Translations under genes and position numbers: made by a program
From: an uncultured archaeon
GTDB lineage: Archaea; Iainarchaeota; Iainarchaeia; Iainarchaeales; 1-14-0-10-31-34
Length of the DNA: 64,000 nucleotides
Assembly: GCA_964442255.1 (NCBI GenBank)
Contig: CAYTYC010000002.1
Location: forward strand, 730 to 64,729
Reading direction: 5' to 3'
The notes under the pieces: generated by a model
What the model was told of the DNA's origin: nothing
Databases searched by the model: none
What the model saw: the letters and a program-made list of their open reading frames with translations, nothing else
Shown: piece after piece, positions 19,905-64,000 of the stretch
Numbering within the stretch: position 1 is the first letter of the stretch
How the letters are laid out: each line of letters opens with the position of its first letter

Positions 19905-20303
19905 TCAGGTTCTTGTTATCAGGAAGCTTCCCAGTGCGATTAAAATTATTCCTGCCCACCTTACTGCGGTAACGTTTTCTTTAAGGAAAACAAAGGCGCC
20001 TATTGCGACAAGCACGTATGCTATGCTTAACAGGGGGTAAATGTAGCTTACATCCAGTGAGGAAAGCGCCCCAAGCCAAAGCACTGCCAGAAAGGCGTAA
20101 AGCAGCACACCCCCAACCAAGTATTTGTTTGTTATTATTTTGAAAAAAGTGTCTTTGCTGAAAAGAGACTGCAGGCTTTTTTGTTCCCCTACTTCATTCA
20201 TTCCTTTTTTCAGGATTATCTGCCCGAATACTGCTCCCCCAATGCAAACCAAAACCAAACTCAAGGCAAACAAGCTCATCCCCCTCACTTGCATTTGCTT
20301 CAC
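19905..20303 (-). CDS. EamA/SMR-like 4-TM small transporter, possibly an ArnE/ArnF-type flippase subunit for lipid-linked sugars.
   Basis: 132 aa with four hydrophobic helices in an EamA-like pattern. It lies at the edge of the glycan island. Confidence 0.5.
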   Translation of the reverse strand: MKQMQVRGMSLFALSLVLVCIGGAVFGQIILKKGMNEVGEQKSLQSLFSKDTFFKIITNKYLVGGVLLYAFLAVLWLGALSSLDVSYIYPLLSIAYVLVAIGAFVFLKENVTAVRWAGIILIALGSFLITRT

Positions 20304-20333
20304 TTTCTTTTTTTAATTGCTTGGAAGTTTTTA

Positions 20334-21131
20334 TTAACCCTTTCCTTTTGCTTCCAGCTTCTCCACGAATTCCTTCAGCGAACACCCGGTTTCAATGTTC
20401 TTTTCTTTAACTTTTCCCAAAATTTTTTCCAGAATTTTTTTCCCTTCCCCAAAGGACTGGATATGGAAAAGAAACACAAAGAATTTTTTTTCTTCAATTC
20501 TTTTCAGCATTTTTTCCGTGAACTCCATTGCCTTTTCTTCGCTGTACTGGAACTGCATTATTGGGTCACACACACTCTCCGCAGGCACAACCCGCAGCCC
20601 TTCAGCTGTCTTCCATGTCTTTGGCTTAAAGAAATAAGAATCTGAAGAATAAAGGAAGCCGTTTTCTTTGAGCTCTTTTTCCCTTCCCCGGTGGAGGTGA
20701 AACCTTGGGCTCCTGTAGCCGTCAACCTTTTTCCCAAACCTTTCCTCAAGAATTTTTTTTCCTTCAGAAACAAGTTTTTTTCGTGTTTCCTTTTTTTCTT
20801 TCACTATTTCGTTTCTTTCGTGCGTCAGCCCGTGCTGCGCAATTTCATGCCCCTTCAGTATTGCCGTCATTTCCGCAGCTTTCTCCTTGCTTAATGTTTT
20901 TCCGTATACTTTTGGTATAACAAAAAAGGTTCCCTTTACCTTGAATTTTTTCAGCATCCATGCAAGCCCCTTTAAGTCGGATAAATCTGTTTTTTCGCTT
21001 AAATCGTCGCAGGTGAACAGAAAAAATTCGTTGCTTAGCAAAGGCTTTCTTAGGGCGCTTATTGGGGGAAAATGCATGAACAAATCCAGCCCTTTTGCGT
21101 TCAGTGCCTTTATAAAACCGGTTAAATGCAT
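20334..21131 (-). CDS. Polysaccharide deacetylase (CE4/NodB-like).
   Basis: It has FLFTCDDLSE (a TFDDG-type Asp motif) and HEIAQHGLTHE (an H-x4-H metal-binding motif). Length is 265 aa. Confidence 0.6.
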   Translation of the reverse strand: MHLTGFIKALNAKGLDLFMHFPPISALRKPLLSNEFFLFTCDDLSEKTDLSDLKGLAWMLKKFKVKGTFFVIPKVYGKTLSKEKAAEMTAILKGHEIAQHGLTHERNEIVKEKKETRKKLVSEGKKILEERFGKKVDGYRSPRFHLHRGREKELKENGFLYSSDSYFFKPKTWKTAEGLRVVPAESVCDPIMQFQYSEEKAMEFTEKMLKRIEEKKFFVFLFHIQSFGEGKKILEKILGKVKEKNIETGCSLKEFVEKLEAKGKG

Positions 21132-21358
21132 TTTTCTGTCACGCTTTAAATCTTTTTCTTCCCCCTGTATCTTCTATCCCGTTAATTTGATTAAAGGAAT
21201 GTTGGGTAAAAAATAGGGGCAACTTAATTGGGTGCTGTAGAATTGGTTCATTTAACGTACTTTAATGCAAAAAACGGTTTTTTTGCTTTTCTTGTAAAGC
21301 ACTTGCCAAGAATCGTTAAAAAGGAAAAAAGGCTGCCCCGGTTTTCTGAGTGAATCTA

Positions 21359-22096
21359 ATGGGTAAAACATGTTTGGAAGGGATTGAAAGATGGGACAGA
21401 ATCTGGCAGCAGACACATTCCACGAAACCAAATGAAAGCCTTGTCTTTTGTGTTTCTTCCTTGTTTGAAGACTTAAACGGAAAACGTTTTTTAGACATTG
21501 GCGCAGGGCGCGGAAACGACATAACCTTTTTTGCAGAAAAAGGCGCAAAAGCGTTTGCCTTGGATTATTCGAAGCAGTCGGTTAAGCTTATCAAAAAACT
21601 TTCAAAAGAAAAAAATGCAGCAGTAAATATTGTTATAGCGGATTTGAATTCACTGCCTTTTTCAGGTAATTCATTTGACTTGGTTTATTCGCAGGGGGTC
21701 CTGGAGCACTTCAAAGAGATTGAGCCCTTTATTAAAGCCCAAAAAAGGGTGCTGAAAAAAGGCGGCTTCTTGCTTGTGGATGTTCCCCAAAAATATTCCC
21801 TTTACACTTTATGGAAGCAACTCATGGGGGAAAAGCACTGGACTCTTGGCTGGGAAACACAGTACTCGTTTTTTGAATTGAAAAGAGTTCTGGAAAAAAA
21901 CGGTTTTAGGGTTTGCAGTTCATATGGCACAGAATTTTTCCCTTACCTTCATTTGATTGGGCAAGGCATAACCGGAAAACCTTTTATGCCTGGATCCCTG
22001 AGAAAAATTTACTTGAAGTTGGTTAAATCCCTGGAAAAAAGTTTTTTTGGGCCTTTCTTTTGTGTCTCAGTTGGAGTTGTCGGGGTAAGACTTTAG
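21359..22096 (+). CDS. Class I SAM-dependent methyltransferase.
   Basis: Motif I is FLDIGAGRGNDITFFAEKG. An acidic residue ends beta2 (ALDYS), and motifs II/III lie downstream. The track begins at GTG 21350; the ATG at 21359 is preferred. Confidence 0.75.
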   Translation: MGKTCLEGIERWDRIWQQTHSTKPNESLVFCVSSLFEDLNGKRFLDIGAGRGNDITFFAEKGAKAFALDYSKQSVKLIKKLSKEKNAAVNIVIADLNSLPFSGNSFDLVYSQGVLEHFKEIEPFIKAQKRVLKKGGFLLVDVPQKYSLYTLWKQLMGEKHWTLGWETQYSFFELKRVLEKNGFRVCSSYGTEFFPYLHLIGQGITGKPFMPGSLRKIYLKLVKSLEKSFFGPFFCVSVGVVGVRL

Positions 22097-22105
22097 GGGA
22101 GTTAA

Positions 22106-23554
22106 ATGGGCGAAGTAAGAACAATAGCCAAAAATATGGTTGTACTCACTGCTTCAAGAGCAGTCGGCATGTTCTTGTCTTTTGCTTTGTTGATTCTTGT
22201 TGCCCGCCATTATGGGGCGGAGCTTTTTGGGGAATACAACTTTGCACTGGCTTTCTCCATTTTCTTTGTTATTGTGTCTGATTTTGGCTTGACCACGATT
22301 GCAATAAGGGATGTCGCAAGATGCAAAAGCGACAAAAAAAAGTATTTAACAAACATCTTTGCACTCAAGCTCGGGCTGACTTTCCTTGTGGCTTTAACCG
22401 TTTTTTTTGTTGTTCTTTTTTTGGGTTACCCTTCTCACCTGACTTCAATTATTTGCATTATTGTTGCAGCTTCTTTGGTTGAATCCTTTTCCAACACTTT
22501 CCGCCTTTACTTTAAAGCCTTTCAGAGAATGGAATTTGAGGCTTTACTGGTTTTCCTGCAGAGCCTCTTTTTCTTTGTTTTGGGTTGGACTGTTGTAACC
22601 AACAGTTTGGACATCGTTTTCCTGGCTTTGGCTTACTTGCTTGTCAACGTTTTTATTCTTTTCTTAAGCGCGTTCCTTGCACTGAAAAAAATTACTTCTT
22701 TCAGCTGGCGCCTTGACCCCGCACTTTTGAAGTATTTGCTTGTCAGCTCCGCGCCACTAATGCTAATTGGTTTTCTGGAGGCGGTTTACACCAGAATTGA
22801 CGCAGTGCTTTTGTCAAAACTTACCTTTGAGCCGATTAAGGCAATAGGCCTTTACAGCTCAGTTTACAGGCTTATTGACGCCCTCACAGTATTGCAAGTG
22901 AGCTTTTTTATTGCAATTTTTCCGGTTTTGTCTGAATTCTTTCACTCCAACCGGCAAAGGTTTGAATTTCTTTACACCCGCTCATTCAAGCTGATAATAA
23001 TTTTTTCTTTCCCCCTGGCTTCACTTATTTCAGTTTTTTCCCTTCAGATCGTTCAAATAATTTATGGCCGGGAATTCATTGAAGCTGCAAGCGCCTTAAC
23101 TGTCCTTGCATGGGTTTTGCCTTTCACTTTCCTGAACTCTTTGCTTTTCAATGTCCTTTACTCAAGTGAAAAACAAAAATGGGCAATGGTCTTTTTCGCA
23201 TTAACAGCCGGCTTAAACATTTTGCTGAACCTCTTGTTAATTCCTGTTATGAGTTTTGTTGGGGCAAGTGTCAGCGCACTAATGAGTTCAGCGTTTTTGT
23301 TTGCCCTTCTTTTCTTTTACGTTTCCAGAAAAACAGCCAAGCCCGCTATTATGCGTTACCTTCCAAAACTTTCAGTCCTGAATATGCTGTTTTTCGCACT
23401 TGTTTTCCTGTTTAATGAGTCCTTTGGCTTGACTTTTTTCTCATTTATATTAATTCTTTTTGTTTCAATATTGTATTTGTTTCTTCTCTTTGTTTTAAGG
23501 GTTGTGGATGAGAAGGACTTGGGTCTGCTAAGGCAGCTTACCGGAAGAAGGTGA
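22106..23554 (+). CDS. wzx: Wzx-type oligosaccharide flippase (MOP superfamily polysaccharide biosynthesis protein).
   Basis: The N-terminus IAKNMVVLTASRAVGMFLSFALLILVARHYGAELFGEYNFALAF is the classic Wzx/RfbX start. The protein has about 12-14 TM over 482 aa. Confidence 0.8.
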   Translation: MGEVRTIAKNMVVLTASRAVGMFLSFALLILVARHYGAELFGEYNFALAFSIFFVIVSDFGLTTIAIRDVARCKSDKKKYLTNIFALKLGLTFLVALTVFFVVLFLGYPSHLTSIICIIVAASLVESFSNTFRLYFKAFQRMEFEALLVFLQSLFFFVLGWTVVTNSLDIVFLALAYLLVNVFILFLSAFLALKKITSFSWRLDPALLKYLLVSSAPLMLIGFLEAVYTRIDAVLLSKLTFEPIKAIGLYSSVYRLIDALTVLQVSFFIAIFPVLSEFFHSNRQRFEFLYTRSFKLIIIFSFPLASLISVFSLQIVQIIYGREFIEAASALTVLAWVLPFTFLNSLLFNVLYSSEKQKWAMVFFALTAGLNILLNLLLIPVMSFVGASVSALMSSAFLFALLFFYVSRKTAKPAIMRYLPKLSVLNMLFFALVFLFNESFGLTFFSFILILFVSILYLFLLFVLRVVDEKDLGLLRQLTGRR

Positions 23555-23561
23555 ACTTGAA

Positions 23562-25289
23562 TTGAATGTTTTGGGTATCTCAGCTGAATTTGTTCACGAC
23601 TCTGGTGCAGCGCTGGTAAAGGACGGAAAACTTGTCGCTGCGGCAGAAGAGGAAAGATTTTCGAGAAAAAAGCACGACTACTCCGCCCCGCTTGAATCCA
23701 TTAAATTCTGCCTAAACCAGGCCAACCTGACAATGGATCAAATAGATTTTGTGGCTGTTCCGTGGCTGCCGTTCAGTGCCTTCTCCTATGGAAATGTTTT
23801 CAGCTGGCTTTCCCGGGGAAGGGATGTCTGGCCTTTGGGGGCCCATTTTCTCTTAAACAAGGGGCTTAACTCCGCTGTTAAACTGTGGAAGTCAGGAAAA
23901 AACTCTAACCAGCTTGAAGTTGAAAAACTTTGCCAGGGCACTGTCGCCTATCTTTCAGAGCAATACCTTGACATTCCTGAAGTAAAATACTTTGAACACC
24001 ACAAAGCGCATGCAGCCAATGCATTCTACTGCTCCGGCTTTGATGATGCCTCAGTCATAAGTGTTGACGGAAACGGCGAGGCAAACGCAACTGTTGTCTG
24101 GAATGCGGACGGAAACTCAATCGAAAAAGTCAGGGAAGAGCTTTGCCATAATTCCTTGGGAATGTTTTACCTTACTGTAACAAATTTTTTGGGGCTTGGA
24201 AGGTTTGGGGAAGGCAAAACAATGGGGCTCGCAGCCTACGGAAAGAAAAACAAATCCCTGGAAAAAAGAATCCGTGAAAAAATAATTGACACCGAAAAAC
24301 CGGAATGGTACAAGCTTGGCTTCCCTTCTTTAACGTATGAATCAAACGCAATAAACAAACAGGTTTTGGGTTTTCCCAGCCGAACAAATGAATCCCCCCT
24401 TGGAAAAAATTATGCTGACTTTGCTTTTGCTTCCCAGAAGGCGTTGGAAAAGGCTGTTTCAAATATTGCGGAATGGGCTGTTGAAAAAACAGGCCGCCCC
24501 AATCTCTGCTTAAGCGGGGGGGTTGCCTTAAATTGCCTTGCAAACTCTGTTGCAATGAATTCACACAATGTAAACGGTTTTTTTGCTTTCCCTGCAGCAA
24601 ATGACGGCGGGACCCCTGTTGGGGCGGCACTGCTTTGCGCTGCAGAGCACGGAGAGAAAGTCAAGCACAAGATGGAGCATGCTTACTTTGGCCCAGCTTA
24701 CTCCAATAAGGAAATCGAAAATCTGTTAAAAAAAATTAAAGCCGATTACACTGAAAGCAGGGACATCTCAGGCGAGGTAGCGGAACTCCTTGCAAAAAAC
24801 AGGATTGTGGGCTGGTTTCAGGGCAGAATGGAGCTCGGACCAAGGGCTTTGGGGAACAGAAGCATTCTTTCAAATCCAACAAAAAAATCCACAAAAGACA
24901 AGGTAAACAAGTTAAAGGGGCGGGAGTTTTGGCGTCCTTTGGCTCCTTCCATGCCGGATGAAGCAAAAGAAGAATACTTGGAGGCTGCTGTTGAGTCCCC
25001 GTTTATGATTTTAAGTTTTAACATCAGGAAAGAAAAACTAAAAGAAATTCCTTCCGCCTCCCACGTTGACGGCTCCACCAGACCCCAAACAGTAAAGAAA
25101 AAATCCAACCCAAAGTATCACCGTCTTATAAAAGAGTTTGAAGGCTTAACCTCTGTTCCAGTTGTCTTAAACACTTCCTTTAATTTGAAACACGAGCCAA
25201 TTGTCTGCAGCCCTTTGGATGCTGTCCGGACATTTTACTCCTCCACACTTGACGCCGCCGCAATAGGGGATTTTTTGTTGTTAAAGTAA
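23562..25289 (+). CDS. NodU/CmcH-family carbamoyltransferase.
   Basis: The N-terminus MNVLGISAEFVHDSGAALVKDGKLVAAAEEERFSRKKHD is highly characteristic of the family. The 575-aa length also fits. Confidence 0.85.
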   Translation: MNVLGISAEFVHDSGAALVKDGKLVAAAEEERFSRKKHDYSAPLESIKFCLNQANLTMDQIDFVAVPWLPFSAFSYGNVFSWLSRGRDVWPLGAHFLLNKGLNSAVKLWKSGKNSNQLEVEKLCQGTVAYLSEQYLDIPEVKYFEHHKAHAANAFYCSGFDDASVISVDGNGEANATVVWNADGNSIEKVREELCHNSLGMFYLTVTNFLGLGRFGEGKTMGLAAYGKKNKSLEKRIREKIIDTEKPEWYKLGFPSLTYESNAINKQVLGFPSRTNESPLGKNYADFAFASQKALEKAVSNIAEWAVEKTGRPNLCLSGGVALNCLANSVAMNSHNVNGFFAFPAANDGGTPVGAALLCAAEHGEKVKHKMEHAYFGPAYSNKEIENLLKKIKADYTESRDISGEVAELLAKNRIVGWFQGRMELGPRALGNRSILSNPTKKSTKDKVNKLKGREFWRPLAPSMPDEAKEEYLEAAVESPFMILSFNIRKEKLKEIPSASHVDGSTRPQTVKKKSNPKYHRLIKEFEGLTSVPVVLNTSFNLKHEPIVCSPLDAVRTFYSSTLDAAAIGDFLLLK

Positions 25290-26093
25290 GTGATTTTTAT
25301 GCAAAAGATTTCAGCCTGCATTGTCGCAAAAAATGAGGCCCACTGCATTGCGGAATGCCTTGAAAGCGTTAAGTGGGCTGACGAAATAGTCTTGGTTGAC
25401 CAGCAAAGTTCAGACGCCACCACTGCAATCAGCAAAAGGTTTGGGGCAAAAATTTTCAGGTGCAGGAAAACAGGGTTTGTTGAACCCGCAAGGGAATTTG
25501 CGGTTGGAAAAGCCTCTAACCAGTGGGTGCTTGTTTTGGATGCAGATGAAAGCCTTAGCAAAGAACTGCAGAATGAAATAAAAGAAATGCTTGAAAGAGA
25601 AAGCTCTTTTGACGGTTTTCTTCTGCCCTTTCAGACAATTTTCCTGGGCAAAACCTTAAACCATTCCGGTGAAACTTTTTTCCAGGCAAGGCTTTTCAAG
25701 AGCTCCAAAGCAGTTTTTCCAACCGAACTCCACCAGCCCATTCAGGTAAACGGAAAACTTTCACAGTTAAACGGAAAAGTGTTTCATGAACCATACAGGG
25801 ACCTGGAAGAATTAAGGGAAAAAACCGTTTTGTATAGTTCGATTGAAGCCCGCCAGGATTTTTCCAAGGGAAAAAGTTTTTCCCTTTTAAAACTCTTGTT
25901 TTCTCCTTTTGCTTCTTTTGCACACAAATTTTTTTTTCGCATGGGTTTCCTGGACGGCAGGCGCGGGCTTACCTTGGCTTTTTTTGCTGCAAAATATAAA
26001 TTCTTAAAGCAAAAAAAGCTGAAGGCCCTTGCTTCAGGACATTCGGCTCACTTAAAAAATCCAGCCAAATTATCAAGCAATGAAAAACGGTAA
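25290..26093 (+). CDS. Family 2 glycosyltransferase.
   Basis: It has ISACIVAKNEAHCIAECLESV...VLVDQQSSDAT and VLVLDADE (DxD). Rossmann-like GT-A N-terminus. Confidence 0.8.
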   Translation: MIFMQKISACIVAKNEAHCIAECLESVKWADEIVLVDQQSSDATTAISKRFGAKIFRCRKTGFVEPAREFAVGKASNQWVLVLDADESLSKELQNEIKEMLERESSFDGFLLPFQTIFLGKTLNHSGETFFQARLFKSSKAVFPTELHQPIQVNGKLSQLNGKVFHEPYRDLEELREKTVLYSSIEARQDFSKGKSFSLLKLLFSPFASFAHKFFFRMGFLDGRRGLTLAFFAAKYKFLKQKKLKALASGHSAHLKNPAKLSSNEKR

Positions 26094-27433
26094 AATTTTT
26101 CCATGAACCCCTGCACAGTTATTTTCCCGTTAAGCAAACCCTTAACCATGTCAAACGGGGTTCCTTCAACTCCGTCAATGAATCCAAAGTGTTCAGTGAA
26201 CATTAACGTCAAAGAATATAAGGCCAGAACTGCCCCCAAAGCTATTCCGAGTTTCCTGTGCTTTTTCAGAAAAACTGAATAGCCCACAACGAACACCGGA
26301 AAAAGGGAAGTCAAATACCTCTGGGAAAAGCTCCAGCCCCCGCTCCACTCCGAAAAAAAACTGTACGCAACAGTCAGGCTCAAAAACATTCCTAAAAAGA
26401 AAACCCCCGGGCCCCTTTTTTCCTTAACCAAATAAATCAAGCCAATGATTGAAAGAACAGTCAACGGAGACCACAGAAAGAGCCCGTGCACAGGGTTTAA
26501 CAGGATGTTCAGGAAATTCATTGCAGGAATTGGCGCGGCACTGCTTGAAGCAATCAACGCAATGTTTTCCTCTCCCATTGCCCCAATGTGTGCGTTCCAG
26601 TAAAAAGGCAAAACCCAAATCAATGACAGAAACCCCGCCCCTAAATGCTTTGTGTGCCCCATTTTCTTAAAATAAATATAGTAAACGAAAAGAAAAACAA
26701 AGAACACCGCATTCGCATATCTCACCCACATGCTTGCCGCCAAAAGTGCTCCGACAAAAAACTGGTATTTTGGGTTTTTGTCCCTTAAAAACAGAAACAG
26801 GAATACAAACAAGCTGATCACAAAAGCGTCAACTGCATGAGTGAAAGAGGGAACAAAAACAGAGTAGTAAAGCAGAGGCGTTGAAACGAAAACCGCCAGC
26901 ACAGTGAAGGAAGACTTTTTCAGTTTTAGTTGCCCCAAAATCCCCAGGCAAATGAAAAGAGTCAATATCCCGTAAAAGTTGCTTGAAATGTTCACTGAAG
27001 CCATGTGAATCCATAACTCTTCAACTGTTCCCTGCACTCCAAGCTCTGCAGAAAATTTTGCCTGAAAAAAGCCATCCAAAGCCAAAGCAACAATATAAAA
27101 AGGGGCATTAAAGAGCGCGGTCCCAAATGAAGCATTTGTATTGAATCTTTCATGTTTTGGGTCCCATGTCACCAGATAAATGTGCTGGTCTGGTTCCTGC
27201 ATTACCTGGTTTGTTAACTCAAAGTCAAGGTCCTGGGCCATTGATTTCATTAGTGTGTAATGCGCAAACCCGTCGCTCCAGACAACGTAGCTGTTAAAGT
27301 TTGCCGCAAAAAAAACAAACACCGCCGCAACAAACAAACACTGTTTGTGCCTTGACGCGAATTCCTTGACTTTTTTGAAGGAGGGTTTCTCCATTTTTCC
27401 GCCTTGCCAGTGTTTAATAATTTTTCCGCTCAA
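26048..27433 (-). CDS. Polytopic membrane protein, possibly a GT-C-type glycosyltransferase.
   Basis: First TM, then a ~90-aa loop carrying acidic motifs (SDGFAHY, DLDFE), then more than 10 TM helices. It is convergent with the upstream GT2 and overlaps it by about 46 nt. Confidence 0.4.
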   Translation of the reverse strand: MSGKIIKHWQGGKMEKPSFKKVKEFASRHKQCLFVAAVFVFFAANFNSYVVWSDGFAHYTLMKSMAQDLDFELTNQVMQEPDQHIYLVTWDPKHERFNTNASFGTALFNAPFYIVALALDGFFQAKFSAELGVQGTVEELWIHMASVNISSNFYGILTLFICLGILGQLKLKKSSFTVLAVFVSTPLLYYSVFVPSFTHAVDAFVISLFVFLFLFLRDKNPKYQFFVGALLAASMWVRYANAVFFVFLFVYYIYFKKMGHTKHLGAGFLSLIWVLPFYWNAHIGAMGEENIALIASSSAAPIPAMNFLNILLNPVHGLFLWSPLTVLSIIGLIYLVKEKRGPGVFFLGMFLSLTVAYSFFSEWSGGWSFSQRYLTSLFPVFVVGYSVFLKKHRKLGIALGAVLALYSLTLMFTEHFGFIDGVEGTPFDMVKGLLNGKITVQGFMEKFYRFSLLDNLAGFFK

Positions 27434-27484
27434 TTACCTTATCTAAAACATCAATGAATATTTTAATACTAGTGACGGGAGAAA

Positions 27485-29417: not shown

Positions 29418-29464
29418 AAGTTTTTTTACTATGGTTGGTCATACCATTTTTTGCGGGGGATTAA

Positions 29465-53632: not shown

Positions 53633-53649
53633 AAAACTTTTAATAAACT

Positions 53650-56398: not shown

Positions 56399-57537
56399 AA
56401 GCCTTTCACTGCATTTAAATAAACGTCTTCAATTTTTAAAGCAATTTTTTTCCAGCCAAACTCTTTTTCCGCTTTTTTCCTTCCGTTTTTTCCCATTCTT
56501 CTGCACATGCTTTTATTCCCCAAAAGTTTTTCCATTTTCTCCGCCAAATCAATTGAATCCCTTGGATTCACAAGCAGCCCGTTTATGCCTTTTTCAACCA
56601 AGTTCCTTACTCCCGGCAAGTCAGATGCAATAACCGCTTTCCCGCAGGCCATTGCCTCAGCCAAAACCAATCCAAATGCTTCGCCTTTGTCTGTTGACGG
56701 AAGCACTGCGAAATCCGCAAGCGCGTAAAACTCAGGCAAAACTTTTTCTTCAACTCTTCCCGTAAAAACAACCCGCTCTTTTATCCCTAATTCGGAAGCC
56801 TTTTTCCTGTAATATTTTTTGAGTTCGCCTTCCCCCACAACAAGCAGTAAAGCATTTTTTTCTTGTATTTTGCTGAATGCATCAAGCAAAACATTCACTC
56901 CCTTAAAGTAATGCGCCTTATCCAGTGCGCCCACAAACAAAACAACTCTCCTGTTCCTTAAACCAAGTTTTTTCTTTAGCCCGCTGCAGTCAATCTTTGG
57001 ATTGAATTTTTCCAATCCAACCCCGTTTGGGATTGCGGAAACATCCTCTTTTCTTTCTTTAAAAATTTCTTTAATGTTAGAGTTTTCTGCATAATCCATA
57101 GAGCTGACAATAATTTTTTTCGAGTTTCCCAGAACAGATTTAAGGAAAACCTTTTCATGGAATTTGAAGAACCGCTTTTTCCACCCCTTTCCCACCACAT
57201 CCATTTGATATGTTGAAACCATTGGAATTCCCCTTGCCTTGGAGGCAAGTGCCGCCAGTTCTCCCCCAAAGTGGTAAGGAAGATGCAAATGCACCAAATC
57301 AAATCCCTTCAATTTAACCAGTCCGGGAGTAAGAATTCCGTTCCCCAGCTTAAACCAGTAATTAAGCCTTTCAACCCCGATTTCCTTTGGATAAGGAAAA
57401 TTTCCTTTCGGGTAGTTTGAGGTGAAAACCTTTACTTTGTGCCCGAGCCTTGCGATTTCCAGTGCATTATGGAACGCGGTATTCCCCACCCCCCCAAAGT
57501 AGGGGGGAAAAGGGGATGCAACAACAGCCACCTTCAC
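56395..57537 (-). CDS. Family 4 (GT-B) glycosyltransferase.
   Basis: The N-terminus is MKVAVVASPFPPYFGGVGNTAFHNALEIARLGHKV. The C-terminus is GEAFGLVLAEAMACGKAVIAS. Confidence 0.85.
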   Translation of the reverse strand: MKVAVVASPFPPYFGGVGNTAFHNALEIARLGHKVKVFTSNYPKGNFPYPKEIGVERLNYWFKLGNGILTPGLVKLKGFDLVHLHLPYHFGGELAALASKARGIPMVSTYQMDVVGKGWKKRFFKFHEKVFLKSVLGNSKKIIVSSMDYAENSNIKEIFKERKEDVSAIPNGVGLEKFNPKIDCSGLKKKLGLRNRRVVLFVGALDKAHYFKGVNVLLDAFSKIQEKNALLLVVGEGELKKYYRKKASELGIKERVVFTGRVEEKVLPEFYALADFAVLPSTDKGEAFGLVLAEAMACGKAVIASDLPGVRNLVEKGINGLLVNPRDSIDLAEKMEKLLGNKSMCRRMGKNGRKKAEKEFGWKKIALKIEDVYLNAVKGL

Positions 57538-58253
57538 TTTCTCTGCCCCCTAAACCTTAACGCAAAACACTCCAAAAGAATTGAGCCATACTTTCCCCCG
57601 ATATCCAGGAGCTTCATTTTGGCTTCCCCTGCTTTCCTGTTTTTCCAGGTTGTGGGCACTTCAGCAATTTTTGCGTTCCTTAAAACCATTGGCTTCAAAA
57701 TCATTTCAGCGGTCAACTCAAAGCAGGTGCTCTTTAATCTTATTCCCTTGAAAACTTCTTTCCTGTAAGCCTTAAACGCGTTTGAAAAGTCTTTAATGTT
57801 TTTTCCGAAAACAAGTGCCAAAACATTGTTGTAAAGCCTGTTGCAAAAAAGCTTAATGAAAGGATACTCAACTGTTTTTCCTCCTTTTACAAACCTTGAA
57901 CCGATCACAATGTCGTACCCTTCACCGACTTTTTTAATCATTTTTGGGATTGTTTTAGGGTCATCGGAAAGGTCAGCCATAACAGGCAAAATGACATTCC
58001 CTTTAGCTTTTTTGAATCCGTCCCTTACAGCCAAGCCAAACCCGTTTGGTGGGGAGCGGTGAATAACCGAAATATTTGAATTCTTTCCTGCAAGCTTGTC
58101 CGCAATTTTTCCGGTCTCATCTGAACTGCAGTCGTCCACAATAATTATTTCACAGCCCAGTTTTCCGCATTCCCGGTAAACTGATTCCACGCATTTCTCC
58201 AGGTTTTTTTCCTCGTTGTGCGCCGGAATAACTATGCTTGCATTCATTTTCAT
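57534..58253 (-). CDS. Dpm1-like GT2, a polyprenyl/dolichyl-phosphate hexosyltransferase.
   Basis: It has MNASIVIPAHNEEKNLEKCVESV...IIIVDDCSSDET. The ~235-aa soluble GT-A is trimmed to the internal ATG (MKMNAS...). Confidence 0.8.
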   Translation of the reverse strand: MKMNASIVIPAHNEEKNLEKCVESVYRECGKLGCEIIIVDDCSSDETGKIADKLAGKNSNISVIHRSPPNGFGLAVRDGFKKAKGNVILPVMADLSDDPKTIPKMIKKVGEGYDIVIGSRFVKGGKTVEYPFIKLFCNRLYNNVLALVFGKNIKDFSNAFKAYRKEVFKGIRLKSTCFELTAEMILKPMVLRNAKIAEVPTTWKNRKAGEAKMKLLDIGGKYGSILLECFALRFRGQRK

Positions 58254-59458
58254 CACAAAACCGTTGTTACGAGATACAAACCCCATATGTCCAAAAGGAA
58301 CAAAAAAACAAAGAAAGAATATTCATTTAACTTCTTCAGAAAGCATGTTTTCAGCACGTCCCTTGTTCCTGCGACAAAAAGCATTGCAATCGGCGCAATA
58401 ACAGGAAAAAAGTGCCTGCCTTGCGGCGATAAATGCTTCAAACTATAGAATAATTCAATCGCGAAAAGAACCGCTACGCTTAAAGCACAAAGCATAACCG
58501 CTTTTCCCTGAATTTTTTCCAGAAAAACCTTCCCTTCCCTCAACCCAAAAAAAACCTTCATCAACCCTGCAAACGCAATAAAGGAAACCAGATAAAGAAA
58601 CGCATACACTGTCCCTGGAAACCTAACCTGATTTGTTATTCCAAACGCGCCCCAAAACGTCTCAAAAATGTTCATCACAAAAAAGTGCGCCTCCCAAAAC
58701 CCAAAAGACGCAATTGCAGGCGCAGCAATCGCGGCTCCAGTCAAGTCCCCGTAAACCGCGAGGTTCCGCGCAAACCACGGCGCGACAACTGCTGCAGCTA
58801 ACCCAACTGCAATCAGGGACTTTTTCAGGAAACCCTTTTTTGTTCCGTTAAAGTAAAACGCAAGCACCGCAACAGGCACCCCGATGAAGAGGGTGTACTT
58901 TGTGAGGATTCCTGCAGCCAAAAGCACGCCAACCAAAACCGCTGTCAATGTTCCTGGCTTTTCCTGCACAGCTTTCACTAAATAGTAAAGCAAAACTGAA
59001 AAAACAAGGTAAGAGAACGTGTCGTTTCCGATTACCGCGGTCATTGCAATGTGCGCCGGAAGCAATGCAACAAACAATGCCGAGCCAACAGCAAGCCATT
59101 CCTTTTCAGGAAAAACTTTTCCCGCAATCCTGTACACAAGGTAAATTCCAAGTACCCCCAGGAAAACAGACAAAAGCCTTAACGCGTAAATCGCCGGCAA
59201 TTCACCAAAGCCCGCAAAAAGGCTGAAAGGAATCAATGCAACCAAATAATATGCCGGGGGCTGCCAGTTCTGGTAGTCCTTGTGTCCGGAAACCATGCTG
59301 TGCTCCGCAACAGGAAAAGCCTTGTTTTCATTAAGGAAGAGGATGTAATTGTAGTGCGGCTCTTCATCAGGCGCCTCCCAGACAGGAATGCTGAAGCAAA
59401 AAATCAGCCGCAAAAGCAATGCCAGAACCAAAACAATTGCGATTTTGTTTTTATCCAC
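58253..59458 (-). CDS. GT-C-fold glycosyltransferase, ArnT/PMT_2-like.
   Basis: The N-terminus is MDKNKIAIVLVLALLLRLIF, and the loop-1 motif is EAPDEEPHYNYILFL (D31 about 59368). There are more than 10 TM. It lies directly upstream of a Dpm1-like GT2. Confidence 0.55.
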   Translation of the reverse strand: MDKNKIAIVLVLALLLRLIFCFSIPVWEAPDEEPHYNYILFLNENKAFPVAEHSMVSGHKDYQNWQPPAYYLVALIPFSLFAGFGELPAIYALRLLSVFLGVLGIYLVYRIAGKVFPEKEWLAVGSALFVALLPAHIAMTAVIGNDTFSYLVFSVLLYYLVKAVQEKPGTLTAVLVGVLLAAGILTKYTLFIGVPVAVLAFYFNGTKKGFLKKSLIAVGLAAAVVAPWFARNLAVYGDLTGAAIAAPAIASFGFWEAHFFVMNIFETFWGAFGITNQVRFPGTVYAFLYLVSFIAFAGLMKVFFGLREGKVFLEKIQGKAVMLCALSVAVLFAIELFYSLKHLSPQGRHFFPVIAPIAMLFVAGTRDVLKTCFLKKLNEYSFFVFLFLLDIWGLYLVTTVL

Positions 59459-59459
59459 T

Positions 59460-60377
59460 TCACTTCCCCCAAAACCATTTCTGCCCGCTCAGAACTCTGC
59501 AAACATTTTTGGGAAGAAATTTTCCGTTTTTCCCCGCAGTCAGCCCTGAAAACTTTACCGTGCCTGAAACAAGCGCGTAAGGAATTAGGTGTGAGAGGTT
59601 TTCTTTTTGCAGCCACCCCACTAATTCCCTGTAAAACCCTATTCCTGATTTAGTGAAACGGGCTGAATCAAAGTTTTCATGGATCTGCGAATAAGAGTAG
59701 CCGATGTCAAAGTGTCTCCTGAAATCCGATGCCAATCCATGGCTATGGGAATGAAGTACAGCTGCTTCCGGTTCGTAAACTATGTCAAAGCCTTTCCGCA
59801 TAACCCTGAAGGCCCATTCATAGTCCTCTGAGACAATTGTTTTCTCGGAGAAAGGCTCTTCCAGAAAAAGTTTTCTTTTAACCGCGGAATTCGCATTAGA
59901 AAAAACAATGTCCTCTTCACCCCGGTTTTTGGAGTTTCGGAAAATTTTTTTGTTTCCATATTTTTTTCCGTAAAAAAACTTTTCCATTGGCGAAGAGTTT
60001 TTCCTTGCAACCTGCCTTCCATAAGTGCCTGCAACATTTTTTTCTTTCAGCCCCTGCACAAGCTTCTTCAGCCATTCTATGGTTTCCGGAACAGCATCTT
60101 GTGTAAGGAAAACCAAATACTTTCCTTTTGCTTCCCTTGCCATCGCATTCCTGGTTTTTCCGTGCCCGAATTCTTTTGGGGAAATGGTCTTTAGCTTTAC
60201 AGGAAACTTTTCCGCTATTTCCCTTGTGCAGTCGGTTGAACCGGAATCCCACACCACAACATCAAAGGAAACCCCTTTCTGGGCAAACACCTGTTCAAGG
60301 ACTTTTTGAAGGCCTTTTCCTGCGTTTCTTGTGGGGATAAGGACAGAGGCATCTGTTGCTGGCATTAAAGAGAACAT
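59460..60377 (-). CDS. Family 2 glycosyltransferase.
   Basis: It has ASVLIPTRNAGKGLQKVLEQV...VVVWDSGSTDCT...FLTQDAV. Confidence 0.75.
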   Translation of the reverse strand: MFSLMPATDASVLIPTRNAGKGLQKVLEQVFAQKGVSFDVVVWDSGSTDCTREIAEKFPVKLKTISPKEFGHGKTRNAMAREAKGKYLVFLTQDAVPETIEWLKKLVQGLKEKNVAGTYGRQVARKNSSPMEKFFYGKKYGNKKIFRNSKNRGEEDIVFSNANSAVKRKLFLEEPFSEKTIVSEDYEWAFRVMRKGFDIVYEPEAAVLHSHSHGLASDFRRHFDIGYSYSQIHENFDSARFTKSGIGFYRELVGWLQKENLSHLIPYALVSGTVKFSGLTAGKNGKFLPKNVCRVLSGQKWFWGK

Positions 60378-60391
60378 GCTGGGAAAACAAT

Positions 60392-61933
60392 TTATTCCTT
60401 TACAGGCGCGGGCATAAGTTTTCTTGCCATTGAAATAAGCCTTTCCAGCCCTATTCCTGTGAGAAGGATTATTGTGTAAACAAGCATTGTCACAAGAATT
60501 GTGTAGGATACAAGAAAATGCGTTGAAATAACCGGGTTAAGGTAAATAAAGAAAAGCATGAAAACAAGAAGTATGACAAGGATTTTTGCCCTTTTGCTGA
60601 AAACACTGAAGTAAAAGCCAACCATTGCGATAATGAAGTGTGAAAGGCTCACATAGTAGAGGACATTCAAAAGGTTTCCTGCGGTTGGCTGGAAAGAGAA
60701 AAGGTTTGAAGCCAGGACAAGCATCACGACGCTTGCGCCAGCCCAAAAAAGCACAAGCCTCTTTGAGGCAATGCTTTTGAATTCGGTTGCAAGATAGAAA
60801 AGAAAAACAAAGAAAAGCACCGTGAAGAGTTCCCTGCTGAAGATGAACAGCGTAGCGTAAGGAATTAAGGTGAACACATACCTTTGTATATTCTCCCTTC
60901 CAAACGTCACAAGTATTCCATAAAGCGCGGCAATAAACAGCCCGAAGCCGATAAGCATGTTGAAAGGAAGCAGTGTTATGCTATTAAGGAAATTAAAAGA
61001 AAAAACCAGGGTAATTGAAGACAAAGTGCTTGCAAGGAAGTTTCCTTTTGTCATGTAAATCATCAGGCTGTAAGTTAAAACAAGGAGTGTGGAAGAAAAA
61101 AGAAAAGGCGCGAGTTCAAAACCCAAGAAACCAAAGGAATAGTTTGAGGTATAAAAGTTTTTGGTGAGCCCGAAACTAACCGCCAAATGCGTTACAAGGT
61201 TAACCGCAAGCAGGAAAGGAAGGAGCGCCATGTTGTACTTCACTACTCTCGGGTTGCGCAAAAACTTCAAGTCAAAAAGCCTTCTTGCAATTTTCACTCC
61301 GTCCCTGAATGCGTTAAGTTTGGGTTCATCCCCGCGAGTGCGGTAGGTAATCGGAATTTCGGTGAACAAAAAATCCCTGTGGGTGCATTCACTGAAAAGG
61401 TTTGCCTCAATGTCAAACCCTTCCGCAGTGAGTTCAACCCCTTTAATGACTTTTTTCCTGAAACCCCAATATCCAGTGCACAAATCAGTTATCTTTGAGC
61501 CGAACAAAAGGTTTGCAATAAAGGTAAGCCCCCTATTTCCCAGGAGGTTTGTTCCGCTCATCGCACCTTTTTGTATGGAGCCCTTAAGCCTTGACCCCAA
61601 AACCACGTCCGAGCCTTTTTCCAGTTCGCCCAAAATCGGGATAATGTACTCCCCGGGGTAGGTTTCATCAGCGTCAAGCATTATGGTGTAATCCGTTTGA
61701 ATATAATTGAATGCATCCCTTACTGCGTTTCCTTTCCCTTTCCTTGTCTGGATAACTGTTGCGCCTTTTTTTTTCGCGATTTCCTCTGTCCTGTCAGTGG
61801 AGGGGCCATTAACTACAAGCACCCCTGTTTTGAAGCCCATTTCCCTTAATTTCTTGAGCGGAATTTCCCCTATAACATTTCCAATATGTTTTTCCTCGTT
61901 CAAAGCCGGGATAAAAATAGTCAATGATTCCAT
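60392..61933 (-). CDS. AglD-like fusion: a Dpm1-type GT2 domain followed by a polytopic C-terminal membrane domain.
   Basis: The N-terminal ~230 aa is GT-A (LTIFIPALNEEKHIGNV...VLVVNGPSTDRT...MLDADE). Another ~280 aa carrying 8 or more TM helices follows. Confidence 0.7.
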   Translation of the reverse strand: MESLTIFIPALNEEKHIGNVIGEIPLKKLREMGFKTGVLVVNGPSTDRTEEIAKKKGATVIQTRKGKGNAVRDAFNYIQTDYTIMLDADETYPGEYIIPILGELEKGSDVVLGSRLKGSIQKGAMSGTNLLGNRGLTFIANLLFGSKITDLCTGYWGFRKKVIKGVELTAEGFDIEANLFSECTHRDFLFTEIPITYRTRGDEPKLNAFRDGVKIARRLFDLKFLRNPRVVKYNMALLPFLLAVNLVTHLAVSFGLTKNFYTSNYSFGFLGFELAPFLFSSTLLVLTYSLMIYMTKGNFLASTLSSITLVFSFNFLNSITLLPFNMLIGFGLFIAALYGILVTFGRENIQRYVFTLIPYATLFIFSRELFTVLFFVFLFYLATEFKSIASKRLVLFWAGASVVMLVLASNLFSFQPTAGNLLNVLYYVSLSHFIIAMVGFYFSVFSKRAKILVILLVFMLFFIYLNPVISTHFLVSYTILVTMLVYTIILLTGIGLERLISMARKLMPAPVKE

Positions 61934-62030
61934 CGAAAAAATATGCGCTAAACCCAATTTAAAGCTTTATGGGGCCCGGAAGGCAATCAAATAAATTTTA
62001 ATTCATTAAACACTATTATAAAGTGTTACA

Positions 62031-63596
62031 ATGAACAGGGACTTAATTGCAAAAGCGTTTTTATGGGCAGGGCTTATCGCTTTTTTCTTTCTGCTTAGCT
62101 GGTTTTTTACCTACTCAATCCACGACTTTTACCCTCTTCCATATCATTCGGATGAATGGGACCACATCGCAATTGCAAACGAAATCGCCAGAACAGATGG
62201 CCTGGTGAACTACAACCCTTATTGGAGGGAAGGATGGGACCCGCAGTGGGAGCAAAACTACCATGTGCTGATGGTTCTCCTGATGAATGCGACCGGCTGG
62301 GATGTCGCGGATTTGGGCGGGGTTTATGTTGCCCTTTTCATTCCCGTTTTAATGACTTTTCTGATGGTTTTTTTCACTTTCCTTCTTGTAAGGCATTTGA
62401 CTGGAAGCAACATCGCCGGACTGATAGCTTCCGTAACAGTTCTCTTGACCCGGCCAAACCCCACCCTCCTCGGTTACTGGTTTGCTGTTCCAATGGCTTT
62501 TGGATTGGCTTTCATTCCAATGGTTTTGTTTCTATTCGTAAAGGCTTTTTCCTCTAAGGGATACGCATACTTTGCCGCTCTTTCCTTGGTGTTTGCGAAC
62601 CTTACTTTGGTGCACCCGGCTTCCGCAATAATTTTCCTTCCGGCTTTTTTTGTTTACTTAATGATTCACCCAAAGCTTTTGGTCCAAAACAAATACAAAA
62701 TGGCTTTCGTTGTTTTGGAGCTTGCGGCCCTTGCCTTGCTTATGGTTACCTATTCAATCGCCGATTTTTCTTTTGGCACAAGGGCTGAATTCATTGAAAC
62801 AGTGTTTAGGACAATTACCTTCACTACCTCCCTTTACGAAGTGCAGGTCTTCTTTTTTCTTCCAAGGTTTTTAACCTGGGCTGGCTTTGCTTTGGGTTTG
62901 ATTGGAATGGGTTACATGTTGCTTCTAAGGAACCGTGAAGCAAAAATTCTTCCCCTGCTTGCCATAACCCTGGTGCCCTTGATTTACCTTTTCTTTACCC
63001 AGGAAAGAATTTTTTTGGCTGACTACCGGCGGGTTTTCATGTACGTTGCAACTGTTTTTGCGATTCTTTCGGGAATCGGAATTTACGCAATTGTTTCCGG
63101 ATTAAACCATTTGCTTAAGAAAAAAATTTCAAAACTCAGCATCCGAAACAAAATCGGATTGATTCGTTTTCCGCAGGCATTGATAGCGTTGGTTGTGGGC
63201 TTTCTGCTGTTAAACCAGCTTCTGCTGATTCCTTTCACCCATCTCCCCTATCTTTACCGTGTTATAGAGGAAGATGATGTTCCCGCGATTTTGTGGCTCA
63301 AGCACAACTCCAATATTGATGAAGTTGTTTTGGCTTTGCCCGGCCATTCCCGTGCGATACACGGGATAGCCGGAAACAAGGTTTTGTATGTTAATATGGC
63401 CCGCCTCCGCGGTCCACGGGGGGAGGAAGAGGCATTTGAATTCTTGAGCGTTGGATGCGAGCAAAGGGCCAAAATGCTTTACGGGCGCCCCAACTTTGTT
63501 TACAGCGCAGAACCTTTGGGGTGTGATTTTTTAAAGGAAGTTTATTCAATTAATGACAGGCACGTTTACCGGGTGGATTACAGTGAAATCACTTAA
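62031..63596 (+). CDS. GT-C-fold glycosyltransferase, ArnT/PMT_2-like.
   Basis: The N-terminal TM is followed by a loop-1 motif YHSDEWDHIAIANEIARTDG (D41 about 62151). There are more than 11 TM and a C-terminal soluble domain. Confidence 0.55.
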   Translation: MNRDLIAKAFLWAGLIAFFFLLSWFFTYSIHDFYPLPYHSDEWDHIAIANEIARTDGLVNYNPYWREGWDPQWEQNYHVLMVLLMNATGWDVADLGGVYVALFIPVLMTFLMVFFTFLLVRHLTGSNIAGLIASVTVLLTRPNPTLLGYWFAVPMAFGLAFIPMVLFLFVKAFSSKGYAYFAALSLVFANLTLVHPASAIIFLPAFFVYLMIHPKLLVQNKYKMAFVVLELAALALLMVTYSIADFSFGTRAEFIETVFRTITFTTSLYEVQVFFFLPRFLTWAGFALGLIGMGYMLLLRNREAKILPLLAITLVPLIYLFFTQERIFLADYRRVFMYVATVFAILSGIGIYAIVSGLNHLLKKKISKLSIRNKIGLIRFPQALIALVVGFLLLNQLLLIPFTHLPYLYRVIEEDDVPAILWLKHNSNIDEVVLALPGHSRAIHGIAGNKVLYVNMARLRGPRGEEEAFEFLSVGCEQRAKMLYGRPNFVYSAEPLGCDFLKEVYSINDRHVYRVDYSEIT

Positions 63597-64000
63597 GGAC
63601 TTGGTTTTGGCTTTGGTTTTCCTTTCAGCTGTTTTTTCTTCAGCCGTGCTTGTGGTTTCCGAGCTGACAGAGCCGGCTGAAGCATTTAACGAGCTGAGCG
63701 GATTTTGGAGGGTTCCCCTTGGAATTTATCTTCTTCTTTTTCCGACAGGCTTTATCCTTTATTCCTTACTTTTCGTTAACAGGAAAACCGACGCACTTGA
63801 AATCTTTGGCTTAAGCATTGCTTTATCGGTTTCAACAATAACCCTTGCAGCGGTTATGGCTAACGTGTTGCTTTCTTTTCCACTTGGCCTTCTCCACAAC
63901 CTGTTGGTAATCAATGCCTTGAATGTGTTGTTTTACTTTTTGTTTGTTTTCAGGGAAAAAGTTTCCCCTATAATTTCCCACGCATTAGGCTACTATGAGT
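63553..64000 (+). CDS. Polytopic membrane protein, 3'-truncated by the window end.
   Basis: An ATG at about 63553 opens an ORF that runs to the window end and is hydrophobic throughout (LVLALVFLSAVFSSAVLVVSEL...). It overlaps the previous gene's 3' end by about 44 nt in another frame. Confidence 0.3.
   Translation, partial: MTGTFTGWITVKSLKDLVLALVFLSAVFSSAVLVVSELTEPAEAFNELSGFWRVPLGIYLLLFPTGFILYSLLFVNRKTDALEIFGLSIALSVSTITLAAVMANVLLSFPLGLLHNLLVINALNVLFYFLFVFREKVSPIISHALGYYE

Follow-up and report, generated by a model that had tools for sequence, protein, structure and literature searches.

What does a long, unbroken block of glycosyltransferase, flippase and sugar-tailoring genes build in an uncultured archaeon, and is it a single locus at all? 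The question is raised by a 64,000-nt stretch of DNA, here called the window, from an uncultured Iainarchaeales archaeon (assembly GCA_964442255.1, contig CAYTYC010000002.1, forward strand 730-64,729), in which an original prediction had described a contiguous and exceptionally dense island for glycan assembly and tailoring. To examine this we ran Pfam on all 37 open reading frames (ORFs) of 19905-63596 and NCBIfam on those that encode glycosyltransferases, membrane proteins or tailoring enzymes; genes are referred to below by their start positions. Indeed, positions 19905-64000 hold 37 genes arranged back to back at a coding density of 98%, and all 37 encode glycan-related proteins or membrane proteins in a glycan context, a run that cannot be due to chance. 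The inventory comprises eight glycosyltransferases of family 2 (GT2), seven of family 4 (GT4), seven supported membrane glycosyltransferases of GT-C type plus one candidate, three Wzx flippases, one MprF-type flippase-like protein and one ArnE/F-like protein, along with five methyltransferases, two radical S-adenosylmethionine (SAM) enzymes, one carbamoyltransferase and one CE4 deacetylase. The gene census of the original prediction, including its estimate of six to eight GT-C enzymes, was thereby reproduced almost gene for gene, giving 23 glycosyltransferase candidates (22 supported ones and the orphan g30563). By domain content and by analogy with Haloferax Agl, we consider it likely that this is the main locus for cell-surface glycan assembly and decoration in a DPANN archaeon, most likely working on dolichol phosphate (DolP).

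Where the locus begins is marked in the base composition. At ~20.0 kb the GC content falls sharply, from 0.481 per gene in 18 flanking genes to 0.433 in the island (Mann-Whitney p = 5e-8), and at third codon positions from 0.555 to 0.482 (p = 6e-7). The proteins are recorded on one NCBI contig (75,619 bp) and in Logan assemblies of run SRR7048218, five contigs of which are colinear with the window at 100% identity, together covering ~30 kb (17253-27580, 27552-30700, 39755-43898, 48942-59199 and 61930-64000); a single one, 17253-27580, spans the GC step, and the last (L001) continues 5.1 kb past the window end. Beyond position 64000 L001 encodes a DUF1616-like protein, two small proteins, a GT9 that is heptosyltransferase-like (101 bits on TIGR02195), a second B12-radical SAM enzyme and a methyltransferase. 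Because this contig carries glycan genes that far out, the island measures at least ~49 kb, and the full locus is probably ~50 kb. Therefore, of the ~44 kb first proposed, the dense glycan block from 19905 onward stands but its extent does not: the block runs at least 5 kb past 64000, and an ArnF-like gene at 19905 and an HldE-like gene at 16724 had gone unnoted.

On which carrier would the glycan be assembled? Five of the eight GT2 have AglJ (TIGR04182) or a dolichyl-phosphate hexose transferase as their best NCBIfam match, all below the equivalog cut-offs of these models (325 and 375 bits). The strongest is 60392-61957 (minus strand), an AglJ-like GT2 (AglJ 189 bits, DolP-hexose transferase 115) fused to a domain of ~8 transmembrane (TM) segments (residues 242-475). 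It is followed by 37240-38103 (plus), an AglJ/GtrB-like putative polyprenyl-phosphate sugar synthase with two C-terminal TM segments (residues 227 and 258; AglJ 119.5 bits, DolP-hexose transferase 85, ArnC 68), and by 57534-58286 (minus), which resembles DolP-hexose transferases (DPhHxTase 90.6 bits, AglJ 87) and likewise has ArnC among its matches. Both 49177-49941 (plus; Pfam GT2, best NCBIfam AglJ at 61 bits) and 33009-33743 (plus; Pfam GT2 100 bits, best NCBIfam AglJ at 58 bits) are weakly AglJ-like, the latter being of AglJ or polyprenyl-phosphate type. Two further GT2 are EpsD-like by Pfam and NCBIfam, namely the EpsD/rhamnosyltransferase-like 52706-53632 (minus), of sugar-to-sugar type, and 59460-60377 (minus), and 25290-26093 (plus; Glycos_transf_2, E 1.8e-15) is of ambiguous subclass, its NCBIfam matches being weak. 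The GT4 are spread over the island at 29465-30550 (plus; Glycos_transf_1, E 1.3e-34), 41641-42792 (minus; E 5e-46), 45653-47065 (plus; Glycos_transf_1 and Glyco_trans_1_4), 47856-49100 (minus; E 1e-30), 51567-52709 (minus), 53650-54783 (minus) and 56395-57537 (minus), the last three by Pfam. Among them, the ORF at 45653 overlaps 44385-45821, and its real start is probably further downstream.

An acidic motif right behind the first TM helix (TM1) is a hallmark of GT-C enzymes. The island encodes eight polytopic GT-C candidates with 7-13 hydrophobic segments each, and a DD, DE or D motif directly follows TM1 in seven of them, the exception being 50068, which is without a clear N-terminal TM segment. 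Four exceed the Pfam cut-off for PMT_2: 35217-37196 (plus; 31 bits, 'VSDDF' after TM1), 42785-44392 (plus; 40 bits, with DUF6798 and 'NGDDANY'), 50068-51549 (plus; 36 bits) and 58253-59458 (minus; 50.7 bits, 'APDEEPHY'). The other four are without a Pfam match. One, g26048 (26048-27433, minus), is GT-C-like by its ~8 TM segments, the sequence 'WSDG' after TM1 and a match to LA_3751/LA_3752, a family of putative glycosyltransferases (E 8e-11; 41.4 bits, cut-off 200). The others are the orphan g30563 (30563-32359, plus), which has ~13 TM segments and 'NGDDFGY' after TM1, g54701 (54701-56398, minus), a 13-TM protein of a very rare family, and g62031 (62031-63596, plus). PDB sequence searches with these four proteins, with g58253 and with the A1 and A2 profiles found nothing meaningful. 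The rarity of g54701 was evident from an exhaustive HMMER search of 1.84 billion representative proteins, which yielded 17 matches, and from a word-indexed search of 5.8 billion clusters, in which g54701 and g30563 each returned only themselves. Comparison of predicted structures gives g54701 a GT-C fold. The families of g54701 and g62031 are homologous (hhalign probability 96%, E 4e-9), and for both models oligosaccharyltransferases (OSTs) are the top structural matches, with AftA, AftD, AftB and ArnT also among the top. By gene context g54701 had been the best candidate for a Wzy polymerase, and one of its distant homologs has a weak EpsG match (E 0.0023); its predicted GT-C fold rules this assignment out, and the predicted fold of g62031 likewise rules it out as a Wzy.

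As originally proposed, genes for GT2 of the polyprenyl-phosphate-sugar type lie beside genes for GT-C enzymes. The clearest unit comprises 35217, 37240 and 38104, contiguous on one strand as a Gtr/Arn-like unit, the third member (38104-39063, plus) encoding an MprF-type flippase-like membrane protein (LPG_synthase_TM 98.6 bits; TIGR00374 63.6 bits, above its cut-off of 43.2). Similarly, 49177 is paired with 50068, 57534 with 58253 and 60392 with 62031, and 25290 adjoins the GT-C-like 26048, whose place among these units is only possible. All three Wzx proteins of the MOP type exceed Pfam cut-offs: Wzx1 at 22106-23554 (plus; Polysacc_synt 99 bits, MurJ, MatE; ~14 TM segments), the divergent Wzx2 at 27485-28738 (plus; Polysacc_synt 35 bits; ~13 TM segments) and Wzx3 at 44385-45821 (minus; Polysacc_synt_3 250 bits; PRK10459 241 bits, cut-off 273). 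Wzx3 is far nearer to bacterial flippases of the WzxC/TuaB type than Wzx1 or Wzx2 are to any model, which suggests a bacterial origin for its gene. A candidate small flippase opens the island at 19905-20303 (minus), an ArnE/ArnF-like half-size EamA protein of 132 amino acids with four hydrophobic segments (Pfam EamA; sub-cut-off matches to ArnF, E 7.6e-12, and ArnE, E 6.7e-8), and it adjoins the CE4/DUF2334 polysaccharide deacetylase gene at 20334-21131 (minus; DUF2334 61 bits, Polysacc_deac_1 39 bits).

The remaining tailoring genes are scattered among the transferases. SAM methyltransferases are encoded at 21350-22096 (plus; Methyltransf_11, E 5.5e-23), 28695-29417 (minus; Methyltransf_11, E 6.8e-22), 32352-33113 (minus; Methyltransf_11, E 4e-21) and 47091-47870 (plus; Methyltransf_31, E 2.4e-18), and a tandem-domain protein at 39060-40571 (minus) matches four methyltransferase Pfam families in two stretches each. 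A NodU/CmcH-type carbamoyltransferase lies at 23562-25289 (plus; Carbam_trans_N 161 bits, Carbam_trans_C 221 bits; NodU 163 bits, below cut-off). Of the radical-SAM enzymes, 33750-35183 (minus) binds B12 by prediction and resembles class B methylases (Pfam B12-binding and Radical_SAM; NCBIfam BchE, HpnJ and others, all below cut-offs), and 40556-41644 (minus) is of the Radical_SAM/SPASM kind.

How might these proteins work together? In Haloferax, AglJ charges DolP, AglG, AglI and AglE extend the charged lipid, the final mannose is attached extracellularly by AglD, AglR and AglS, and AglP methylates (PMC3871713). By the same logic, the four or five AglJ/Dpm1-like GT2, one of them fused to its 8-TM domain, would load dolichol phosphate with single sugars on the membrane's cytoplasmic face, and the soluble GT4 and EpsD-like GT2 would extend some of these charged lipids into lipid-linked oligosaccharides. 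Methyltransferases, the carbamoyltransferase, the CE4 deacetylase and the two radical-SAM enzymes would tailor the sugars, and the three Wzx proteins, the MprF-type flippase-like protein and the ArnE/F-like 4-TM protein would bring lipid-linked mono- and oligosaccharides to the outer face. There, seven or eight GT-C enzymes would add further sugars extracellularly from the DolP-monosaccharides made by the adjacent GT2, a logic known from AglD/AglR/AglS, Gtr and Arn that would here be used repeatedly, and the final product may decorate surface proteins. Because the AglJ-like GT2 would themselves load dolichol phosphate, an initiating enzyme of the WecA or WbaP type would not be needed. The original prediction had taken three Wzx genes to imply at least three distinct lipid-linked oligosaccharides; this deduction is not a safe one, as the Wzx homolog AglR of Haloferax serves DolP-mannose, a monosaccharide donor (PMC3871713).

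What, then, is g62031, the partner of the strongest AglJ-like GT2? Proteins of the STT3/AglB/PglB family are defined by a TM region joined to a CC unit, by DXD motifs, by WWDYG and by a DK/MI motif (PMC3703281). We found nine homologs of g62031, 24-61% identical, among 5.8 billion protein clusters, whose sources are given as 'archaeon', 'Candidatus Micrarcha...' and 'Candidatus Altiarchaeota'. A model built from these nine (pLDDT 78, pTM 0.81) placed 15 OST catalytic subunits at the head of the Foldseek ranking (E 1e-8 to 7e-6). On this predicted model an N-terminal multi-span TM region is followed by a C-terminal globular CC unit, as in STT3, AglB and PglB; the predicted C-terminal domain matches AfAglB-S2, and ArnT is nearly as close a fold match. 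With the short AglB-S of Archaeoglobus fulgidus the prediction shares, beyond the multi-span TM region, a small alpha/beta C-terminal unit and an invariant acidic motif in the first external loop. The family alignment has invariant H39, D41, E42 and W43 in that loop ('HSDEWDH'), as well as H195, P196, R334 and two C-terminal cysteines; a second diacidic motif beside D41/E42 was not identified. Unlike AglB, g62031 is without WWDYG and without a match to Pfam STT3, and at 521 amino acids it is shorter than AglB-S1 (~590 amino acids). Where OSTs have strand-WWDYG-helix, g62031 reads LALPGHSRAI (VVLA-LPGHS-RAIHGIAG), and the pattern of its family at this position, [LI][AS]xx[WYGH]xS[RK]A[IV], has no conserved WWD. 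On TIGR04154 it reaches E 0.015 and 13.6 bits against a cut-off of 450, its family profile finds no match in PDB, and two of its homologs match Pfam DUF6541 instead of STT3.

Because WWDYG and profile membership are lacking and the architecture is seen only on a predicted model, we do not file g62031 as an AglB; it is predicted to have an STT3/AglB-like fold in which a degenerate motif replaces WWDYG. In the three genomic contexts examined, g62031 or its homolog has an AglJ-like GT2-TM fusion as its divergently transcribed neighbour and a DUF1616 gene after it, and all named homologs are from DPANN archaea. Tentatively, and with considerable doubt, one might see in this family a new and minimal branch of STT3/AglB/ArnT that lost the Ser/Thr-binding motif WWDYG and became the dedicated end-transferase of a conserved DPANN surface-glycan module; it would then be a non-canonical oligosaccharyl or glycosyl transferase whose acceptor is a lipid or a protein site other than a sequon, so that glycosylation in this organism would proceed without a classical AglB.

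Is the island uniform? Gene-order comparison divides it into two layers. The right third, from 52.7 to beyond 64 kb, forms a core that other DPANN genomes share, at ~50% amino-acid identity to L010, a 1.19-Mb groundwater contig (Ga0209514_10000002) that is present in other assemblies too. In the same order and orientation as the window, L010 carries a GT4 (49% identical to g53650, with a methyltransferase joined to it there), a counterpart of the rare GT-C (39%, along part of the protein), a GT4 (51%) and a GT2 (49% to g59460), and continues with the GT2-TM fusion (54%) divergent from a g62031 homolog (54%) and then with DUF1616, small and YdjM-like genes. These last match three genes just beyond the window end at 34-36% identity; for example, the DUF1616 gene of L010 is 35% identical to the 295-residue DUF1616-like protein whose gene starts at 63553 (plus) and runs off the window (L001 1624-2511). 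L008 also preserves 53650 (49%), 56395 (51-56% in L010 and L008) and 59460 (50%), and the closest homolog of g54701 stands on another contig in the order GT2-GT4-X-GT4, as in the window. The triad of GT2_TM_C, g62031 homolog and DUF1616 is also retained, at 39% identity, in L013, where the counterpart of 60392 carries Pfam GT2_TM_C and the entire glycan locus occupies ~11 kb between housekeeping genes. The core makes up most of the nine-gene minus-strand run 51567-61957, which the GT4 at 51567 opens; compared with L010, the window has an additional Dpm1-like GT2 and PMT_2 pair (57534 and 58253) inserted into it.

The remaining ~32 kb, from 20 to 52 kb, are organised differently, in units of one to four genes with 16 strand switches among 28 genes and with orphan genes included, and no relative of this part was found among the loci reached. 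It looks like a lineage-specific patchwork. The island is consequently not uniform: the core on the right is shared with other DPANN genomes, and a lineage-specific look is confined to the left part. We also observed giant ORFs at most 10 kb from the module of GT2-TM fusion, STT3-like protein and DUF1616 in both other loci, namely 15473-21533 in L013 (13,277 amino acids) and 19283-21557 in L010 (2857 amino acids, with Laminin_G_3 and DUF2341); in DPANN genomes such proximity of giant surface proteins may be coincidence.

Could the size of the locus have an origin other than the one we favour? That it arose artificially in the assembly, through a chimera or through the joining of variant islands of strains that live side by side, is very hard to credit. 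The Logan assembly of SRR7048218 is fragmented here into 3-10-kb contigs, with junctions at 30.7-39.8, 43.9-48.9 and 59.2-61.9 kb lying outside the retrieved contigs and with one break at 27552-27580, where contigs L002 and L007 share exactly 29 nt and are otherwise colinear, a signature of a branch in the assembly graph that could mark strain-level variation inside the island. Yet the five retrieved contigs are identical and colinear throughout, one of them across the GC step, the window proteins all lie on the single 75.6-kb NCBI contig, and the order 59460-60392-62031 with its following genes is kept in L010. Moreover, no pair of genes in the island exceeds 37% identity and no long or significant repeats were found in the window; stacked strain variants are therefore unlikely, and recent duplication is ruled out. 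No evidence was found for the chimeric assembly that the original prediction had named as a possible undoing, nor, in the window, for mobility. Less improbable, though still unlikely, is recent acquisition of the whole 44 kb as a horizontally transferred or mobile island, an explanation that could draw on the compositional step (GC 0.48 to 0.43, third positions 0.56 to 0.48), on the resemblance of Wzx3 to WzxC/TuaB, on the housekeeping genes that occupy the equivalent flank in Candidatus Iainarchaeum and on the low-GC glycosylation islands of nanohaloarchaea (PMC10266531). Neither an integrase or transposase nor a tRNA gene or flanking repeat was found in the window (the right end lies beyond it), the divergence of the paralogs speaks against such an event, and the conserved core is as low in GC as the variable part (0.430 and 0.434). 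Because both layers are equally low, the GC step looks like a property of the locus rather than proof of recent import, and low GC as an argument for recent transfer is weakened.

The nature of the product admits two further readings. A bacterial-type Wzx/Wzy-dependent exopolysaccharide or capsule locus is distinctly improbable: three Wzx proteins together with many GT2, GT4 and tailoring enzymes do recall exopolysaccharide and O-antigen clusters, and the ~13-TM g30563 could be the polymerase, but no window ORF matches Wzy_C, EpsG, Wzz/PCP, OPX or an initiating enzyme of the WbaP or WecA type (Bac_transf, PF00953), in keeping with the original prediction, which had recognised neither Wzy nor Wzz; the Wzy candidate favoured by context, g54701, is a GT-C by fold, and the host is archaeal. 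Possible, if somewhat unlikely, is a product not linked to protein: a lipoglycan anchored in the membrane, or a polymer of the wall, for which the many GT-C enzymes would draw extracellularly on polyprenyl-phosphate sugars, as happens with arabinogalactan and lipoarabinomannan in mycobacteria or in lipid modification of the Arn type. The seven or eight GT-C genes and the four or five genes for polyprenyl-phosphate sugar synthases would suit such a product, as would AftA, AftD, AftB and ArnT among the leading structural matches of g54701 and g62031, the ArnF-like protein next to the deacetylase, the lack of a WWDYG-bearing OST in the window and the unenriched sequons of neighbouring proteins. 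Against it, OSTs head the structural matches of both models, AglJ, an enzyme of S-layer N-glycosylation, is the best NCBIfam match of five GT2, and a canonical aglB may sit elsewhere in the genome; lipoglycan and protein glycan are, moreover, not mutually exclusive.

The reading that we prefer, a DolP-based, Agl-like surface-glycan locus, has points of its own to answer. WWD.G occurs in none of the six frames of the 64-kb window, in which there is no canonical AglB; the looser pattern WW[DE].G matches once, as WWERG in an unused reading frame. The original statement that no AglB is present consequently holds for the motif and for STT3 profile matches, but has to be set beside the predicted STT3/AglB-like fold of g62031. 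Genes for nucleotide-sugar synthesis are almost absent from the locus, every NCBIfam equivalog cut-off is missed and specific functions are therefore unassigned, and g30563 stays unclassified, with no match in Pfam, NCBIfam or PDB and no significant hhalign alignment to the A1 and A2 profiles, leaving it a candidate for a GT-C or Wzy-like protein. The original prediction had named neighbouring giant surface proteins and pilins as likely substrates. N-X-S/T sequons are not enriched in the neighbouring surface proteins (11 against 7.8 expected in the giant protein, 8 against 6.6 in the other count), and for the giant protein, a 664-residue protein and the pilin-like proteins a role as N-glycan substrates is thereby supported neither way. 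Finally, the DPANN placement of the host rests on identities of 30-61% to proteins of metagenome-assembled genomes (MAGs), not on a marker-gene phylogeny.

Which archaeon carries the locus can be approached from its left flank, where genes lie for a protein resembling PAC2 proteasome chaperones, for an M42 peptidase, for a T2SSF split into a pair and for a T2SSE ATPase. The best relative among GTDB species representatives is a Candidatus Iainarchaeum MAG, whose T2SSE ATPase is 44% identical, and a giant protein (30%), PAC2 (56%), T2SSF and T2SSE are syntenic there; on the side of the island this MAG has housekeeping genes (pyrophosphatase, AlaRS and cis-prenyltransferase). Scans of genomes and JGI metagenome contigs with the T2SSE ATPase for closer relatives gave only the 44%-identity Candidatus Iainarchaeum contig and one other archaeal MAG. 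From the flank synteny and the names of the g62031 homologs, the host is therefore an under-sampled archaeon of DPANN type, related by these sequence matches to Iainarchaeota and Micrarchaeota.

Several neighbouring genes deserve description in their own right. The giant protein at 6744-11270 (plus; 1508 amino acids) carries a signal-like segment at its N-terminus and a TM segment at its C-terminus and matches nothing in Pfam or NCBIfam; from end to end it shares 30% identity with a syntenic 1538-residue protein of the Candidatus Iainarchaeum MAG, next to PAC2, and is likely a conserved surface or S-layer-like protein. Four small pilin-like proteins of 189-275 amino acids, encoded within 239-3006 (plus) and 13392-16625 (minus), each have one N-terminal hydrophobic segment, two of them with KGQ-type starts that resemble class III signal peptides, and none matches Pfam. 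Together with the two single-domain T2SSF and the T2SSE they have the look of a locus for a type IV pilus of archaeal kind. The interval from the pilus genes to the GC step includes 17378-19372 (minus), encoding a membrane-anchored protein of 664 amino acids with one match to the Cys-rich Dicty_CTDC repeat, and 19534-19899 (minus), encoding a 121-residue protein with a lipobox-like start (...LAALSGC). Further left, with pilin-like genes on one side and an ECF transporter module (3835-6135) on the other, a 253-residue protein encoded at 2990-3751 (minus) has weak C-terminal matches to a zinc ribbon and to a RING-like domain (zf-C3HC4_3). Also in the higher-GC flank, and possibly linked to the island, is a gene at 16724-17197 (minus) for a heptose-1-phosphate adenylyltransferase-like protein of the HldE domain II type (TIGR02199 175.3 bits against a cut-off of 181.5; Pfam CTP_transf_like). 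It stands on one side of the island and the GT9 gene (L001 3464-4486, minus, ~3.3 kb past the window end) on the other, and L010 also carries a GT9 (44% identity), together a hint that a glycan of a DPANN archaeon may contain a sugar derived from ADP-heptose.

How does the locus compare with systems already described? With the agl clusters of Haloferax volcanii it shares GT2 that would charge dolichol phosphate, soluble glycosyltransferases for extension, a Wzx-like flippase (AglR, Agl15), a methyltransferase (AglP) and a separate DolP-sugar made by a GT2 (AglD) and transferred outside by a GT-C (AglS), as well as a division into a conserved and a variable part (PMC3871713, PMC11407970); in Haloferax the second agl cluster is highly variable between strains and the other conserved (PMC11407970). 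Compared with aglJ-aglM and agl5-agl15, however, it belongs to a DPANN host and is 3-4 times larger (~40 against ~15 genes), repeats the DolP-sugar/GT-C step four to five times with its seven or eight GT-C enzymes, adds radical-SAM, carbamoyl and deacetylase chemistry, has almost no nucleotide-sugar genes and no canonical aglB, and matches the families below equivalog cut-offs. The working scheme of GT2 synthase, small flippase and GT-C is that of Arn (ArnC, ArnD, ArnE/F, ArnT) and of phage and Shigella Gtr (GtrA, GtrB and a Gtr-type GT-C), systems that modify bacterial lipid A or O-antigen, whereas in the island unit the flippase is of MprF type rather than GtrA and the scores stay below the family cut-offs.

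Similarly, the flexible low-GC glycosylation islands known for O-antigen and capsule and from haloarchaea and nanohaloarchaea share with it a GC below that of the flanks, a patchwork of small units, orphan genes and surface-glycan functions, but here part of the island is a conserved core of equally low GC, in a comparison made without close relatives. Genomic islands with glycosyltransferase or sialic-acid genes have been reported from DPANN archaea (PMC5498576, PMC10266531), and whole genomes of cultivated nanohaloarchaea are reported to have 11-12 glycosyltransferases (PMC10266531), about half the number of candidates in this one island. In kind, then, clustered, partly variable, low-GC surface-glycan loci are already well known, and the present locus is a very large instance of them; its novelty lies in the rare GT-C families and in a conserved module that joins the GT2-TM fusion, the STT3/ArnT-like GT-C lacking WWDYG, and DUF1616.

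DPANN archaea have genomes of ~1 Mb and a life that depends on contact with other cells. In a genome of that size a locus of ~50 kb would amount to roughly 5%, which suggests that much is invested in the coat of surface glycans and that this coat probably helps to determine recognition between the cell and a host, virus or partner. Among its products are also candidates for enzymes that methylate or carbamoylate the sugars of archaeal glycans or act on them by radical-SAM chemistry, and the conserved core of the locus, the GT2-TM fusion, the WWDYG-less STT3/ArnT-like GT-C and DUF1616, provides a concrete set of genes for work in a cultivable DPANN archaeon.

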